A stretch of 32,000 bases of DNA from the NCBI GenBank assembly GCA_028710695.1, contig JAQTTP010000001.1, positions 1-32,000 on the forward strand. The letters run 5' to 3'. Every line of letters begins with the position of its first letter. The first letter of the stretch is position 1. Position numbers and translations under genes: made by a program. Source of the stretch: Candidatus Iainarchaeum sp. (GTDB taxonomy: Archaea; Iainarchaeota; Iainarchaeia; Iainarchaeales; 0-14-0-20-30-16). Below the pieces are notes generated by a model, which saw nothing but the letters and a program-made list of their open reading frames with translations, did not search any database and was not told the DNA's origin. Positions 719-22,763 of this stretch are shown here, one piece after another.

Positions 719-1517
719 AGCTTACATCATTAAATGAATACTTTTTTGTCCTTATTGTCAAATTCTTAGGAGAATATTCTGACCAGATATCTTTTTCATA
801 ACCTAAGTAATCGTTGTAATTTTCAGAATTAACTAAATCTATTATTAGAACTCTTTTCTTATACTTGGTTAATACAAATGCATGGCGCGAAAAGTCGCTT
901 AACTCAACAGAATAAACTTTTGTGTCACTTCCACCAAGAGCAATTAAAATTGAGCAAATTAAAATCGAAAGATCAAATGCATCTCCAGCTCTTGCTTCAA
1001 TTATATCTTTTGGAGCAAGCCAATATTTATTTGATAAATTTAGATCAGTAATTGTATAATTTTTTCGTAAATAATCATAAAGATTTTTTACTGCTTGAAG
1101 ATAATCATTTTCATAATCATAATTTTCAGGCATTATTTCTTGTTTTATACTTAAAACACTCAGATCATTTGGCAAAATAAGTTTCTTTAAATCTTCTAAA
1201 CCAAAGCTCTGTTCGTGCAGATATTTGTTAATTATTGCTTTAAGAAGTTTATTTTGAATCCCATAGTTTTTATTCTGATCTTCATTTTCTTTTAGTGCTT
1301 CTTTTAGGGTATTAAGTTCGTGCCGTAATTTTGCGGGGTTGTTCTGTTGTAAGAATTTAATTTTTTCTTTAAGGACAAGAATTTCTTTTTCGTATTTATC
1401 TTTTTTTGCAGAATTATTTGTTCTTTTTATTAGATCTTCTGTTTCTGTAATTTTCTTCCAAAGCCTCTGCTCTTGCTCGAAAAGAGGCAGATCACTGGAT
1501 AGTATTTTCTCAAGCAT
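702..1517 (-). CDS. coiled-coil protein with a degenerate transglutaminase-like core (Cys replaced by Ala)
   Basis: 271-aa ORF. The C-terminal segment GDAFDLSILICSILIALG...RHAFVL...IIDLV aligns by eye with the transglutaminase-core pattern GxCxdfA(x10)G...HAW...D, but has Ala at the nucleophile position. The N-terminus is charged and helical, with no signal peptide. Confidence 0.55.
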   Translation of the reverse strand: MLEKILSSDLPLFEQEQRLWKKITETEDLIKRTNNSAKKDKYEKEILVLKEKIKFLQQNNPAKLRHELNTLKEALKENEDQNKNYGIQNKLLKAIINKYLHEQSFGLEDLKKLILPNDLSVLSIKQEIMPENYDYENDYLQAVKNLYDYLRKNYTITDLNLSNKYWLAPKDIIEARAGDAFDLSILICSILIALGGSDTKVYSVELSDFSRHAFVLTKYKKRVLIIDLVNSENYNDYLGYEKDIWSEYSPKNLTIRTKKYSFNDVSFDYLE

Positions 1518-3601: not shown

Positions 3602-6600
3602 TTACTTGTTCTTAGGGAATAGTAAGAACAATGCAACCAATATCAATATTATTATTAATGGTGTCATAAACCCTGATGGCAAGAAGCTACTACTTGAACT
3701 TGCAGCATTTCCCGCAACAGGCATAATTGGCACTGTTGCTGCTTTTACTGTGCTTGTAGTTGTTGTTTGCCCACCGCCAAAGATCTTAGATAGAACAAAT
3801 AATAGTATTGCAAGTAAAGCAACAGGTATTCCCAGACCTAAACCTGCACCAGCAAATTTCTTAAAGCCGGAACCAAATCCATCTTCTGGCTTTTTATCGC
3901 TGCCGCCCTCTTTTTTTCCGTCATCTTTACCTTTATCTTTATCGTCCTTTTCTTTTTCTTCTGGTTGGCCTCTATCTTCTTCGCCAGGTTCTCTTGGAGG
4001 TCTTCCACCGCCATCTTCAAAGCCTTCTTCACCAGGACCTCTGCCGCCGCCGACATTGTTGTTATTATTGTTGTTAATTGGTGGCCAACCGCCTGGACCA
4101 CCAGGACCATATCCACCTGGGCCGTATCCCCCTGGGCCCCAACCGCCCTGTCCGCCGCCACCTGCGCCGTTTCTAATAATAAGTTCTCTTAGTTCGTTTA
4201 TTTGGGCTTGGATTGCGTCTGTATCTTCTCTTGTTGCACCATTACGAACCAAATCATCAAGATTGCCTTCCATTCTTGCCAATCTTTCATTTAGCTCTTC
4301 TCTAATTACATTTCTTAATATCTCTGCGATCGCGTGGTTATTAGCATCAAGCTTTCCATCAATTGCATCTAAACGCTCCGCAATAAGCCTAAATGCTTCT
4401 TCAATACCCTCGGTTCTCTCTGCTTCGCCTTCTAATAACTCTCTTAATTCTTCAACTATTTCTTTAATTTCTGCGTCAGTTTCTGTTCCTTTTGAGATTT
4501 TATCTAATACATCAAGGATTTCTTCTTTACCATCATCAATCTTTTTCTCTAAATCAGTCATTCTTTTGCCAAGGTCATCGTGCATTCCAGACAAAGTTGT
4601 AAGAATGTCTTCTCTATTTTGAACTGTCATTTCAGTCAAAGCATCTAACTTTTCTTCAAGTTTCTTTACAAACTTAGGATCAAGCTCAGCAATCTTTTCA
4701 ATTACTTTGTCCCCGGCTTCTTTTATCTTGTCTAAAAGCAGATCCACTCCAACATCCGCACCCTCTCTGATCTCTTGCATACACTCTTTTACTACTGCAT
4801 CAAAGTGCTCCAAGGATAAGAAGTGACCTTCTAACAAACCCAAGTTCTGAAGAACCTTTCTTGTATTTTCGTCAAGGCTCTTAACACTCTTGTTAATTTC
4901 AAATAAACGGGCATCAAAGATCTCACTCATTGCCTCTTTAAGTTCTATTTTTGCGGTCTCTGCATCTTCACGTACCATATCAAGTTTCTTAATTACTTCG
5001 TCGTGCCTTTCTTTTGATGCAGATCTTAATTCATCAACCAATTCATTCAAACCTTGTAGCTTTCCAGGAATTTCATCTATTCTGTTAACTCCGTCTTTTA
5101 TTGCTTCTGCTAAAGCTTTGTTTGTTTTTGCAACTTCCTCTAATTGGTCTCTTGTTAACTTTCCTTCGCTTTCTAATGTGGCAGTTACATTCTTTACAAA
5201 TCTGTCCACAATTTCGGACACCATGGTTATACCTCTTACTTGCCTCTCTGCTTGTGATTTATCCATGGCATCTACAAATTCTTTCAAAGATCCCAATGAC
5301 TGCTCTACTCTTGCAAGCCCTTGTTCCAAATCTTTTCCTTTTAATTTTGTAAGCTCAATAAGTTCTCTCTGTAATCTAACCATCTTTCCAGTTAGTACTC
5401 TGCTCTTATCTAAACTATCTCTTAACACAGAAATTCTGCTAGTTAATCTTTGTTCTATGGCCTCACGGTCTTCTTTTGACCAATTAGATCTTCTTCTGCT
5501 ACTGTCCTCATGCCGCCTTAACTGATCTTTTAAGCTCCTTGCAGTTTCATCTTCTATGAATTCTATTCCTGTTTTCTCTACTTCTTTTTCTGCTTCTTTT
5601 GGAGCAATTAGTTTAGGTTCTTCTTCTGGCTTTTTATCTTGTTTTTCTCTGGACCGTCTTGCTTCCGCCGCTTCAGGACTTTCAAGCAGTTTTCTTTCTG
5701 GTCTACCAAGCAATAATTTTCTGTCAGGCCTTTCTAATTGTGGTCCTCTTGTTGAAACTGTTCTTTTTTCTGCAGGCAACAAATTTGTTTGTAAACCTAG
5801 ATAATGCCTTATACGGCTTTCAAGATATTTAAATGCTGAATCTGGGCCTTCTTTTTCAAATAACTCTCTAAATCTGGTATCTTCGGACTTTAGAATTCTC
5901 TCTGCTTCTTTTGTTCCAAACTTGTCTACCAAATTTTCTAGTTTTTTAACTAAAATTAAATATCTTTCTTGCTGTTCACGATCCAAAACAACGTTCTTTG
6001 CTCTCATTTCTCTTACAAGTTCTAATCTTTCGCTTTCTAAAGATTGTTTAGGAGTAAGCTTTGCAACATACTTATTTATTTCATCAGATTGTTTTCTCAA
6101 TTCATTATAAAGATCTTTCACATATTTTACATCAAGCATCTTTGGCCTACCAAGTAACTGAAGCCTTCTAGTTGTGTCAGACATAAATTCCTCTATTTGC
6201 ATTCTAAGCTGGCCCAATGCTTGCCTTTTTTCGTCCATACTTCTTTTACTATTTCCAATTTCCATCATTGTTCTTCTTATTTTTGTAGGCATAAATTTTG
6301 ACATATTATCTAAAGATCTTGCATTTCTCTCTGGGTCTTTCATTAATTCAAAAAACTTTTCAAACATAAATTTTGGCGGCTCTTTGTCAAATTCTACTTT
6401 TAGATCATTCCACGCAGACAAGCTTCTTTTTTGAGATTCATCATATCTTTCTTCAACAACCCCGCGCATCCTTGCATCGATGGAATCCCTTAACCTATCC
6501 AATTCTATTGCTTGCTCTTTTGACATTTCCCTATTTCTCGTTTTCATTGTTAGATCTATTTTTCTAATCAATTCCGCAAGTAATCTGTTGCTTTCTATAC

Positions 6601-11875: not shown

Positions 11876-12766
11876 ATGCCTAAACCTTTGAAAATTGGAA
11901 GAGAAAGAATTACTTGTGGGAATGAAATTATATCCCGGAGGCAGGGAAGAAAACTTATCGAACTTATGAGGCGACATCAAGACCATGGAGAAGTAGTTCC
12001 GCTATTAAAGAAAGTAGGGCAATATGTAAGAGTAAAAACAGTACAATTTTCAAATCCAGCAAAGTTAATAGTACATAATTCTACCGGATCACTACACAAT
12101 GCCGCTTTATGGAGTACTATTAAACTGTATATTTCAAATATCCGAAAAAGGGATCCGAGAACACTTCCTATTCTTTTAAATGAATTGGCAGAAACATTGA
12201 GGACCGCAAATGCAAGTATAGATTTAGGAACAGCAAGAATTACTTCTAACAAGAAAGAAAACGGCGCGAATTTACAACTTATTTTGGGGGAGCTAGAGAA
12301 AAGGGATGCTTTTGTGTACAAATGGGGAATTCCCGAGATATATGCTCAAAAAGAATCAAACACAACAATATTGGATTTACATTCTCATCCAGAAAGATCT
12401 CCTTTTTCTTTGGGGGATTTAACACTTGCGCTAAATCAAGATAATAATGTGGGCATAATAATTCCGCACAGAAATTCATATGAATTAATTGTAATTCCAG
12501 GAAAAGCTGGGTTAGAAAAAGCAATTATACTATATAAAATAAGACTAAACTACATAGAACAAGAAATTGCACGAGGCAGAAGGCCTTTACAAACAGAACT
12601 ACGTGGAATTACAAATTATTTTTCTTTTTTAAGAACATTTTTACGAAAACAGTTAGTCAGAAAACGGCTCTCTTACGAGGAATACAAAAGAGCAATCACT
12701 ATTTTAGATACCCCCACAAAAGCATTTAATCTAAAACAATTAAGGGAATTAAATATTGCAAAATAA
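11876..12766 (+). CDS. basic orphan protein with a JAMM/MPN+-like motif
   Basis: 296 aa. Residues H169-D181 read HSHPERSPFSLGD (nt 12380-12418). This resembles the JAMM signature HxHx7SxxD with a spacer one residue shorter. The rest of the protein is unrecognised. Confidence 0.55.
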   Translation: MPKPLKIGRERITCGNEIISRRQGRKLIELMRRHQDHGEVVPLLKKVGQYVRVKTVQFSNPAKLIVHNSTGSLHNAALWSTIKLYISNIRKRDPRTLPILLNELAETLRTANASIDLGTARITSNKKENGANLQLILGELEKRDAFVYKWGIPEIYAQKESNTTILDLHSHPERSPFSLGDLTLALNQDNNVGIIIPHRNSYELIVIPGKAGLEKAIILYKIRLNYIEQEIARGRRPLQTELRGITNYFSFLRTFLRKQLVRKRLSYEEYKRAITILDTPTKAFNLKQLRELNIAK

Positions 12767-18810: not shown

Positions 18811-18890
18811 CCTGTGCCTTTATGGCACTTTTTTCTTTCTTTTGGTGAGGTTAAGATTTTCTTTCTTTTCCAAAAAGAAAGAAAAGGTTA
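18811..18890 (-). terminator. three-part tRNA-Asp 3' trailer: U/A hairpin, second A-tract, GC hairpin
   Basis: Minus sense: UUUUCUUUCUUUU-UGG-AAAAGAAAGAAAA (13-bp perfect stem, 18857-18885). Then a 13-nt spacer ending UCACC. Then AAAAGAAAGAAAAAA (18829-18843). Then GUGCC-AUAAA-GGCAC (18814-18828). The oligo-U runs fit archaeal termination. Confidence 0.5.
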
Positions 18891-18962
18891 CGCCCAAACC
18901 GGGAATCGAACCCGGATCGCAACCGTGACAGGGTTGCATCATAGCCATTAGACCATTTGGGC
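18891..18962 (-). tRNA. tRNA-Asp (anticodon GTC)
   Basis: Hand-folded 72-nt cloverleaf: acceptor GCCCAAA/TTTGGGC plus discriminator G, anticodon arm CAACC-CTGTCAC-GGTTG, T arm CCGGG-TTCGATT-CCCGG. No intron and no encoded CCA. Confidence 0.9.
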
Positions 18963-19032
18963 CCGGGATTTTTAAAAAAAATCCTAGGTTGGCAAAAAGA
19001 CCATATCTTCGCGACAAGTCGCTTGATATTCC
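18963..19032 (-). promoter_or_regulatory. conserved structured 5' leader of tRNA-Asp (copy 1 of 2)
   Basis: Minus sense: GGAAUAUC-[AAGCGACUUGUCGCGAA]-GAUAUGGUCUUUUUGCCAACCUAGGAUUUUUUUUAAAAAUCCCGG, abutting tRNA position 1. It is near-identical to 30290-30350. A TATA-like TTTTTTATATA (19055-19065) sits about 22 nt upstream of the block. Confidence 0.6.
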
Positions 19033-19131
19033 AGATTACCTAGAAAAGGTAAAGTATATAAAAAATATTTTCCTATGAATCTGTTTTTAAAGGTTATCTA
19101 TGTCTTTCTTGGTTTTTACCCCTATTTGCAT

Positions 19132-22596: not shown

Positions 22597-22657
22597 GCAC
22601 CCGCAAGGGTTTCTTTTGATGGACCGGAGCTTTTCTTTTTGAAAGAAAAGCTTAGTA
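22597..22657 (-). terminator. three-part tRNA-Lys 3' trailer: U/A hairpin, second A-tract, GC hairpin
   Basis: Minus sense: AGCUUUUCUUU-CAA-AAAGAAAAGCU (11-bp perfect stem, 22628-22652). Then a 10-nt spacer ending CAUC. Then AAAAGAAA. Then ACCC-UUGC-GGGU (22599-22610). Confidence 0.45.
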
Positions 22658-22731
22658 TGAGTTCGCGGGGATTCGGACCCCGGACACCTGGCTTAAAAGG
22701 CCAGTGCTCTACCAAGCTGAGCTACGAACCC
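22658..22731 (-). tRNA. tRNA-Lys (anticodon TTT)
   Basis: Hand-folded 74-nt cloverleaf: acceptor GGGTTCG/CGAACTC plus A, D arm GCTC-AGCTTGGTA-GAGC, anticodon arm CTGGC-CTTTTAA-GCCAG, T arm CGGGG-TCCGAAT-CCCCG. Confidence 0.92.
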
Positions 22732-22763
22732 ACTTTCTAAAAGAAATTCGATAATATCTCTTT

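Follow-up and report, generated by a model that had tools for sequence, protein, structure and literature searches.

Leaders of precursor tRNAs (pre-tRNAs) are usually treated as disposable and unconserved, with RNase P thought to recognise the body of the tRNA, and to our knowledge no conservation from one tRNA gene to another is known for those described so far, which are short or idiosyncratic. The DPANN archaea include the only organism reported, as of 2012, to live without RNase P (PMC3491384). In Nanoarchaeum equitans, which belongs to this group, the tRNAs are leaderless, RNase P is absent, and a box A (TTTAAA) stands 26 nt before a start of transcription that coincides with position +1 of the tRNA (Randau et al. 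2008, as related in PMC3491384). Here we analyse a stretch of 32,000 nucleotides from the DPANN archaeon 'Candidatus Iainarchaeum' (positions 1 to 32,000 of contig JAQTTP010000001.1, assembly GCA_028710695.1; about 31% G+C), which as a whole is called the window, and in it a 70-nt block directly upstream of the gene for tRNA-Asp that recurs upstream of the gene for tRNA-Gly. We give about even chances to the explanation that this block is a transcribed pre-tRNA 5' leader which acts in cis at the RNase P site, and that it belongs to a module common to several tRNA genes of one Iainarchaeia-type DPANN clade.

Set against N. equitans as described there, the window is alike in its DPANN origin, in a conserved sequence at a fixed distance upstream of many tRNA genes and in T-stretches downstream of them. 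Unlike the situation with box A, the positions from -31 to -23 relative to tRNA +1 are GC-rich here (CCAACCTA), canonical TATA boxes are 49-186 nt away on the upstream side, and what is conserved is a hairpin at -4 to -22; and unlike N. equitans, a relative of the window (locus L026) encodes RNase P proteins. We therefore rejected a leaderless promoter of the N. equitans type, since of its two defining features neither box A at -26 nor absence of RNase P was found. The block works most like an ordinary leader that is removed by RNase P, in that its place is between the promoter and tRNA +1, its removal by this enzyme is expected and it folds apart from the cloverleaf. It differs from ordinary leaders in being a conserved sequence-and-structure module common to different tRNA genes, with a helix 2-4 nt from the cleavage site, and no such conserved leader module is described in the literature we searched.

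Based on ARAGORN and Rfam, the window holds three tRNA genes, all on the minus strand. The block precedes tRNA-Asp(GTC) at 18891-18962 (RF00005, 62 bits) and tRNA-Gly(GCC) at 30218-30289 (67.5 bits), and is not present in the region upstream of tRNA-Lys(TTT) at 22657-22732. It spans 70 nt at tRNA-Asp (18963-19032, minus strand) and 61 nt at tRNA-Gly (30290-30350, minus strand), and a covariance model, described below, matches the two copies with 56.4 bits at 18963-19008 and 50.6 bits at 30290-30334, respectively. In a pairwise alignment 50 of 51 positions are identical when the variable insert and the difference in T-run length are left aside. Read in the sense of the tRNA, the block opens with GGAATATC (8/8 identical), runs through a variable insert of 17 nt (Asp) or 9 nt (Gly) to GATATGGTC (9/9) and, after a single T/A substitution, proceeds with TTTTGCCAACCTAGGA (16/16), a T-run of 8 (Asp) or 6 (Gly) residues and AAAAATCCCGG (11/11), which abuts the tRNA in the Asp copy (gap of 0 nt) and is separated from it by 1 nt, an A, in the Gly copy. 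The similarity ends at the block edges: the flanks beyond are unalignable and the tRNA bodies are 63% identical, as had been claimed in the original prediction, which held that the tRNAs and the regions further upstream differ. The 22-mer TTTTGCCAACCTAGGATTTTTT occurs in exactly two copies in the window, with none expected (100 shuffles). The description of a 70-nt block at tRNA-Asp recurring at tRNA-Gly, from which this work started, and the coordinates given with it are accurate in every detail.

RNAfold predicts three hairpins in the window leaders, namely H1, a weak 3-bp helix around the first U-run, and H2. H1 is AUAUC-aa-GCGAC-uu-GUCGC-gaa-GAUAU in the Asp copy (19003-19029, minus strand; minimum free energy and centroid structures) and AUAUCCC-ucugu-GGGAUAU in the Gly copy (30329-30347, minus strand); the AUAUC/GAUAU base of the stem is the same in both, and the self-complementary apex differs, with GCGAC/GUCGC at Asp and a stem-extending CC/GG at Gly. 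The U-run motif that follows reads TTTTTGCCAACCTA in the Asp copy (18985-18998, minus strand; about -36 to -23 from tRNA +1), where it is part of the exact 22-mer repeat, and ATTTTGCCAACCTA in the Gly copy (30311-30324, minus strand), where it was placed by the same repeat and the alignment. H2, found by RNAfold and by a generic hairpin scan alike, has the arms GGAUUUUU/AAAAAUCC. At Asp it consists of GGA-T8 and A5-TCC (18966-18984, minus strand) with the linker CGG (18963-18965), at Gly of GGA-T6 and A5-TCC (30294-30310, minus strand) with the linker CGGA (30290-30293), leaving 3 and 4 nt, respectively, to tRNA +1. The two hairpins put forward in the original prediction, one with a constant base and a differing apex and the other 3-4 nt before the tRNA, are thus both predicted by RNAfold. 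When leader, tRNA and trailer were folded together, leader and cloverleaf folded independently.

Two other readings of the folded leader were rejected. A processing stem formed by leader and trailer, or a bulge-helix-bulge substrate, does not agree with folds that give independent hairpins, merely 2-3 bp of contact between leader and trailer, and no bulge-helix-bulge geometry. The UUGCCAA of the window leaders matches the anticodon loop of tRNA-Gly; there is no counterpart for Asp, Glu or Arg, and we treat the match as coincidence. As a separate observation, Asp and Glu leaders of different lineages have in their 5' part a recurrent motif, AAGCGA(A)GC, similar to the mini-hairpin GCGAAGC, which is very stable (window 19008-19024; L016, about 533-550; L017, about 965-985; L007, 15119-15130).

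The leader was compared across a sample of 10 tRNA genes from four lineages (the window, L020, L028 and L007). L020 (GCA_964480435.1) is a syntenic relative located via MutS (78% identical) and has the same three tRNAs in the same order as the window, while L016 is a close relative with a neighbour protein 88% identical. L007-L015 are loci of distant homologues of a 189-aa neighbour gene; conserved synteny with the window was not found in them, and they were of use only for the tRNA-Glu of L007. The third lineage, L028, together with L022 from the same contig, came from a scan of Joint Genome Institute (JGI) metagenomes with a degenerate hairpin pattern, which returned two true loci; extension of the contig then revealed the tRNA-Arg and tRNA-Ser of L028. 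Found independently of the motif were the Gly and Asp loci of L020, the Glu locus of L007 and the Arg and Ser loci of L028.

A GC-clamped T5-8/A5-6 hairpin lies 2-4 nt before tRNA +1 at 8 of the 10 tRNAs, across all four lineages (Asp, Gly, Glu, Arg and Ser), and is missing only at tRNA-Lys, in two lineages. The U-run-GGC(C)ARAC motif, at about -38 to -25 and with the clade consensus T4-6 G(G)C(C)A(A/G)AC, is present in the leaders of L020 Gly, L028 Gly and Arg, and L007 Glu as well as in the window, and it varies by tRNA type (CCAACCUAG at Gly, GCAGACC at Glu and Arg, CGCAACU at Asp). In L020, the tRNA-Gly is preceded by TTTTTGGCCAACCTAG-CCTTTTTT-ct-AAAAAGG-CCGGA (hairpin element TTTTTGGCCAACCTAGCCTTTTTTctAAAAAGGCCGGA), which is the 3' half of the block with H1 absent and with a GCC/GGC stem in place of the GGA/TCC of the window. 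The tRNA-Asp of the same relative is preceded by TTTTTTCGCAACTT-GCCTTTTTTTT-g-AAAAAAGGC-ag (hairpin element GCCTTTTTTTTgAAAAAAGGCag); about 60 nt further upstream the hairpin is present once more (5288-5370, minus strand). Nothing comparable to the block was seen in the tRNA-Lys leader of L020. In L028 a clearly different tRNA-Gly body stands behind two tandem copies of a 76-nt module (11964-12120, minus strand), an arrangement identical in five independent assemblies (L028-L032); the leaders of its tRNA-Arg(TCT), GTTTTTGGCAGACCGT-ACCTTTTTT-ct-AAAAAGG-CGGG (hairpin element GTTTTTGGCAGACCGTACCTTTTTTctAAAAAGGCGGG), and of its tRNA-Ser(GGA), CACTAG-GCTTTTTT-AAAAAGC-CTTG (hairpin element CTAGGCTTTTTTAAAAAGCCTTG), follow the same plan, as does the tRNA-Glu leader of the more distant L007, GGTTTTTGGCAGACAGT-GCCTTTTT-ggt-AAAAAGGC-TAGA (hairpin element GCCTTTTTggtAAAAAGGCtaga). 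The conserved core comprises a U-run followed by GGC(C)A(A/G)AC, a U-run/A-run hairpin with a GC clamp of 2-3 bp, and a linker of 2-4 nt. Of the leader first proposed to be conserved, the 3' half (U-run motif and H2) is kept clade-wide, and H1 and the full 70-nt block are not. In L011, a more distant DPANN locus, a tRNA-Leu lies behind a different hairpin (GTGAATgaatttATTCAC) 3 nt before +1, with a second hairpin upstream (12386-12432), and helices beside the cleavage site, beyond the T/A type, may be more widespread.

With five leaders as the training set, a covariance model (CM R1) was made, and 145 kb of sequence from the window and its relatives were searched with it. Significant matches lay only directly upstream of tRNA genes and none elsewhere; the model recovered the untrained Asp leader of L020 (22.7 bits, E = 0.0024), the next match being the A/T hairpin of the Gly trailer (E = 0.015). 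A generic hairpin scan (T5 or longer, 0-4 nt, A5 or longer, with complementary flanking triplets) over 86 kb returned 13 sites, of which 10 are tRNA-flank elements and the other three have weak clamps, and found no GC-clamped T/A hairpins at the ends of protein-coding genes. All ten tRNA-flank hairpins have the T-run first, with loops of 0-3 nt and T5-8. The only other T-run/A-run hairpin in the window, CTTTTTTcAAAAAG at 59-76, has a weak clamp and lies directly before a GGAGG and ATG gene start. In Rfam (release 15) only the tRNAs reach the gathering threshold, and E-value scans of both loci gave no match over the leader; weak matches near it were microRNA or small RNA (sRNA) noise over the trailers and, in one case, over the TATA region upstream of the Asp block. 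No Rfam family thus matched the block, in agreement with the original remark that it was of an unrecognised kind. The exact 22-mer had no true match in GTDB representative genomes or JGI metagenomes, and the 19-mer TTGCCAACCTAGGATTTTT had five matches in the GTDB representatives (the source species not being among them), all bacterial and at about chance expectation.

These searches bear on the possibility, which we hold to be very remote, that the block is a miniature mobile element, resembling a miniature inverted-repeat transposable element or a repetitive extragenic palindromic sequence, that inserts upstream of tRNA genes. Two near-identical copies 11 kb apart, and a contig of the Logan collection that ends within the repeated region of the Gly locus, are what such an element might leave behind, but no copy was found away from tRNA genes in the 145 kb searched, so that a scattered repeat, which the original prediction had named as an outcome that would refute it, was not observed there, and relatives have the element in the orthologous place. 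Moreover, terminal inverted repeats and target-site duplications are absent: the block begins with GGAATATC and ends with AATCCCGG (AAATCCCGG), which are not mutual inverted repeats, and no direct repeat flanks it. Phage and plasmid BLAST searches with the leader gave nothing relevant, and scans of viral contigs with two degenerate patterns gave only chance matches, in coding sequence.

The pairing of H2 was examined in alignments of the leaders. In the five-leader alignment all cells of the 8-bp helix are paired and two pairs are changed on both sides, and RNAalifold, given seven leaders, independently predicted the same 8 bp, with CG:4/GC:3 at one pair and CG:5/AU:2 at the next; the clamp pairs covary as GGA/TCC, GCC/GGC and GGC/GCC. 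Compensatory changes at two pairs and the agreement of RNAalifold thus mark H2 as a conserved helix, with covariation that appears real if thin. The Gly leader core, in turn, is identical at 37 of 39 positions between L020 and L028, with both differences in the loop, while the tRNA bodies are 78% identical and the flanks unalignable, and on this comparison the Gly core is stronger evidence of selection than the covariation. The leader core is at least as conserved as the tRNA body, and the leaders of L007 Glu and L028 Arg are 78% identical despite different tRNAs and different organisms.

The window itself departs from this pattern. Its Asp leader shares 91% identity with its Gly leader but only 54-65% with the Asp leaders at the orthologous loci of L020 and L016. 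In its 3' half the Asp leader follows the Gly type (GCCAACCTAG ... CCGG) and not the Asp type (CGCAACT ... GGCAG). Its H1, which reads GGAATATC ... GATATGG and carries AAGCGA in the apex, is similar to the Asp leader of L017 (GGTTATCAAGCGAATGCGAAGATAGCC). Because the 3' half of the Asp leader is Gly-type and its H1 resembles another Asp leader, the two window leaders seem to have exchanged sequence, and they appear homogenised by gene conversion or leader swapping. Such homogenisation in this genome would account for the near-identity of the two copies, and the 70-nt identity is best read as a local event laid over a clade-wide architecture.

It might be argued that the identity is wholly a neutral by-product, a recent gene conversion or duplication having copied the upstream region in a genome whose 31% G+C makes A/T palindromes easy to come by. 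Copying did occur, as the identities of the Asp leader attest, tandem duplications of the unit occur as well, and L016 lost H2 at Asp. We nevertheless regard this account as improbable: at five tRNA species, across four lineages, the hairpin keeps to a spacing of 2-4 nt from +1, its clamp pairs covary, the Gly core is far closer between lineages than the tRNA bodies and flanks around it, and such hairpins are essentially absent elsewhere.

Archaeal box A elements lie about 26 nt upstream of the start of transcription (PMC3491384). The TATA-like box that the original prediction had noted at 19055-19065, TTTTTTATATA on the minus strand, lies 22 nt upstream of the Asp block, whose first base is 19032, and would place the start at about -70 to -72, where the block begins. 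Upstream of the Gly block, the TATA-like GATATAATA (30366-30374, minus strand) implies a start at about -54, a few nucleotides inside the block. At all 8 hairpin-bearing tRNAs the distances given above for TATA boxes are those of the nearest all-A/T TATA-like 8-mers, and the implied starts are upstream of H2; at L020 Gly the only TATA in the 60-nt intergenic space places the start at about -27. Between -31 and -23 the same 8 tRNAs have 3-5 of 9 positions A/T (GCCAACCTA, CCAACCTAG, GCAGACCGT and similar) and no box A, and a reading of the block as a promoter with box A at -26 from tRNA +1 was rejected. A variant in which the first T-run (TTTTTGG) serves as TATA, with the start in the A-run, is unlikely since the genome uses canonical TATA boxes, such as AATATAAAA, 21 nt before the ATG of MutS. 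The proposal that the block is a transcribed leader and not the promoter was borne out as far as TATA geometry goes, which puts the Asp start at the first base of the block; transcription itself is deduced, and the palindromes could act in DNA. Judged from the TATA spacing, the block is quite probably a transcribed leader.

Other features surround the putative starts. A second TATA-like box, AACCTTTAAAAACA (19083-19096, minus strand), follows closely on the stop codon of the gene located upstream of tRNA-Asp and is kept in four lineages (L016, about 455-470; L017, about 902-915; L020, about 5420-5433). The promoter of tRNA-Asp is ambiguous because this box is about 20-25 nt upstream of the TTTTTTATATA box. 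The sequence GAATATCC stands at the inferred start of both the Asp (19025-19032) and the Gly (30342-30349) leaders of the window, and it is contained in AGAATATCCTGAT, which is repeated twice in tandem in the tRNA-Arg leader of L028 (about 1333-1362, minus strand); GAATATCC may be a shared initiator-region motif.

Our preferred explanation would run as follows. A canonical TATA promoter that lies further upstream would drive transcription, which in the window would begin close to the first base of the block, and the 5'-terminal hairpin H1 would form at the start of the window transcript. The leader would fold by itself and leave the cloverleaf undisturbed, with the H2 helix and a single-stranded linker of 2-4 nt placed right at the RNase P cleavage site. 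It would then act in cis on how the 5' end matures or on the folding or stability of the pre-tRNA, keeping a long 5' extension from interfering with the tRNA and presenting or defining the cleavage site; a factor that binds the U-run would possibly be recruited, and RNase P would then remove the leader. The presence of the element before tRNA genes and nowhere else in the sequence searched, its conservation, the covarying helix and the lack of a promoter at -26 are observed, and from them we infer transcription, action at the level of RNA and a role in processing.

Removal of the leader by RNase P is expected because relatives encode Rpr2/RPP21 and Pop5. L026 (MutS 57% identical to that of the window) encodes Rpr2/RPP21 (32.1 bits, cut-off 29.3) and Pop5/Rpp14 (24.3 bits, cut-off 23), and the contig of P0025 has the same RNase P proteins; these proteins are known from relatives, the window's own genome having been examined up to 42 kb. 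No RNase P RNA was found in the sequence fragments examined. In relatives whose MutS is 55-57% identical, Rpr2/RPP21 and Pop5/Rpp14 are clustered beside ribosomal protein L15e and MutS-MutL (L026, 8064-8683, minus strand).

Several points weigh against a cis-acting RNA leader and have to be kept in mind. The sample of 10 tRNA genes in four lineages is small and in part biased, as L022 and L023 came from a pattern that requires the hairpin, a bias shared by the Gly leader of L028. The covariation concerns two pair positions and few independent events in related sequences, and 7 of 500 shuffles (control a) equalled the observed score. Every helix is also a palindrome in DNA, with no informative G-U pairs in the main stem. 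The start of transcription is placed by TATA spacing alone, and at L020 Gly a conserved TTTTTGG lies just upstream of the inferred start, which fits a role in DNA for that part. The T8 of the Asp leader is rare in open reading frames (ORFs; 1 per 27 kb) and could terminate transcription. Finally, the tRNA-Asp leader of L016 has diverged and its H2 is degenerate, and the hairpin is therefore not indispensable.

Some of these points would be accommodated if the element acted in DNA, with its palindromes (TTGGCCAA, CCTAGG/CTAG and T-run/A-run) serving as sites for a regulator, or else shielding the tRNA gene from transcription next to it as an insulator made of A/T tracts or as a bidirectional oligo-T terminator, at a position fixed relative to the gene start. 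Conservation of the sequence itself beyond pairing, including a GGCCAACCTAG that is invariant between L020 and L028, would suit such a site, as would the TTTTTGG of L020 Gly and the fact that in all ten hairpins the T-run comes first and faces polymerases from either direction. Oligo-T is the archaeal termination signal, and the leaders resemble oligo-T or bidirectional terminators in having T-runs of 5-8 on both strands (the strand in the sense of the tRNA has T8 in the Asp leader and T6 in the Gly leader, the opposite strand T5) and in trailers of the same T/A-palindrome style on the 3' flanks. Yet ORFs contain about 3.5 T5-T7 runs per kb and are not depleted in them beyond what base composition accounts for, which would make such runs poor terminators here; since these runs are common inside ORFs, the U-run of the leader need not terminate transcription. 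Unlike archaeal terminators, the GC-clamped T/A hairpins were not seen where protein-coding genes end. An efficient terminator 4 nt before a single-copy essential tRNA, with the only visible promoter upstream of it, would block synthesis, and in L028 Gly and L020 Asp such a terminator would be present twice. Further, varying loops (0-3 nt) and run lengths (T5-8) suit a hairpin better than a site for a dimeric protein, and the arms of H1 keep their sequence while their spacing differs by 8 nt. Weighing both sides, we consider action in DNA unlikely, though far from negligible.

The conserved single-stranded segment between two hairpins raises the further question of whether the leader is itself the product. 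RNase P would then release a stable RNA of 60-70 nt with two protective hairpins, the tRNA would serve as its 3'-end processing signal, and the single-stranded UUUUUGCCAACCUAG would either work in trans or be bound by a protein, for instance one of the Sm-like archaeal proteins (SmAPs). The eukaryotic Sm site is RAU4-6GR between two stem-loops. The R-U4-6-G(G) between the two hairpins of the leaders (CAUUUUGC, CUUUUUGC, GUUUUUGG, GGUUUUUGG, AGUUUUUGG) may be likened to it; unlike a genuine Sm site, these usually lack the A (GUUUUUGG, CUUUUUGC), the next base is often C, and the run lies partly in the loop of a predicted small hairpin. SmAPs have been linked to RNase P RNA by co-precipitation in A. 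fulgidus (review PMC3710371); a tblastn search with an SmAP sequence gave nothing in the sequence fragments examined, a result that is uninformative. A precedent for a leader of this kind may be seen in the dicistronic precursors of N. equitans, in which a C/D box sRNA with its C/D boxes lies downstream of the tRNA (PMC3491384). The likeness is that a second structured RNA is joined directly to a tRNA whose processing would create its end, and the difference that here the extra RNA is upstream, lacks C/D or H/ACA boxes and has no Rfam match. A C/D box sRNA was rejected, as box C (RUGAUGA) and box D (CUGA) are absent from both window blocks and no Rfam match of the small nucleolar RNA type covers the block. 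An sRNA array would easily tolerate the tandem unit duplication of L028, and a core at least as conserved as the tRNA body is what a functional RNA might show; against this stand the differences of the motif between Gly, Glu/Arg and Asp leaders, its partial location in a hairpin loop and the lack of an identified target or partner. Taken together, these data make a leader-derived product quite unlikely in our estimation.

The surroundings of the tRNA genes yielded two additional observations. The trailers of all three window tRNAs are alike (minus strand; 18814-18890 at Asp, 30138-30217 at Gly and 22600-22656 at Lys), with a perfect T-rich/A-rich hairpin after the discriminator (e.g. CCTTTTCTTTCTTTTTggAAAAGAAAGAAAA), then YCAYCAAAAGAAA and then a GC hairpin (GTGCCataaaGGCAC, GGGGCataaaGCCCC, CCCttgcGGG), and the layout in L016 is the same; on the plus strand, the GC hairpin with the T-run after it has the look of a terminator that faces the tRNA. 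MutS has the tRNA-Lys gene just upstream of it, and no MutL adjoins this MutS in the window. Its place is taken by an unannotated ORF of 1260 aa (25324-29106, plus strand) without a Pfam match, the length and position of which are kept in L020.

Going beyond a cis-acting leader at individual tRNA genes, we put forward, only tentatively and as a possibility on the doubtful side, that this DPANN clade uses a dedicated cis-acting RNA module in most of its pre-tRNA 5' leaders. A U-run or Sm-site-like motif and a clamp-closed U/A hairpin at the cleavage site would recruit or position the machinery of 5'-end maturation (a reduced RNase P, say, or an Sm-like chaperone) or give rise to a small RNA that derives from the leader and has a function of its own. 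The module would then represent a new class of signal in tRNA biogenesis, one that co-evolves within each genome. The covariance model offers a simple, searchable signature for surveys of DPANN genomes, and tRNAs with and without the hairpin make a concrete pair of substrates for RNase P biochemistry. Should the element act in DNA, we would be dealing with a regulatory or insulating site specific to tRNA genes, a kind likewise undescribed in archaea. A leader module common to different tRNA genes would point to an extra, leader-encoded layer of tRNA biogenesis in genome-reduced archaea.

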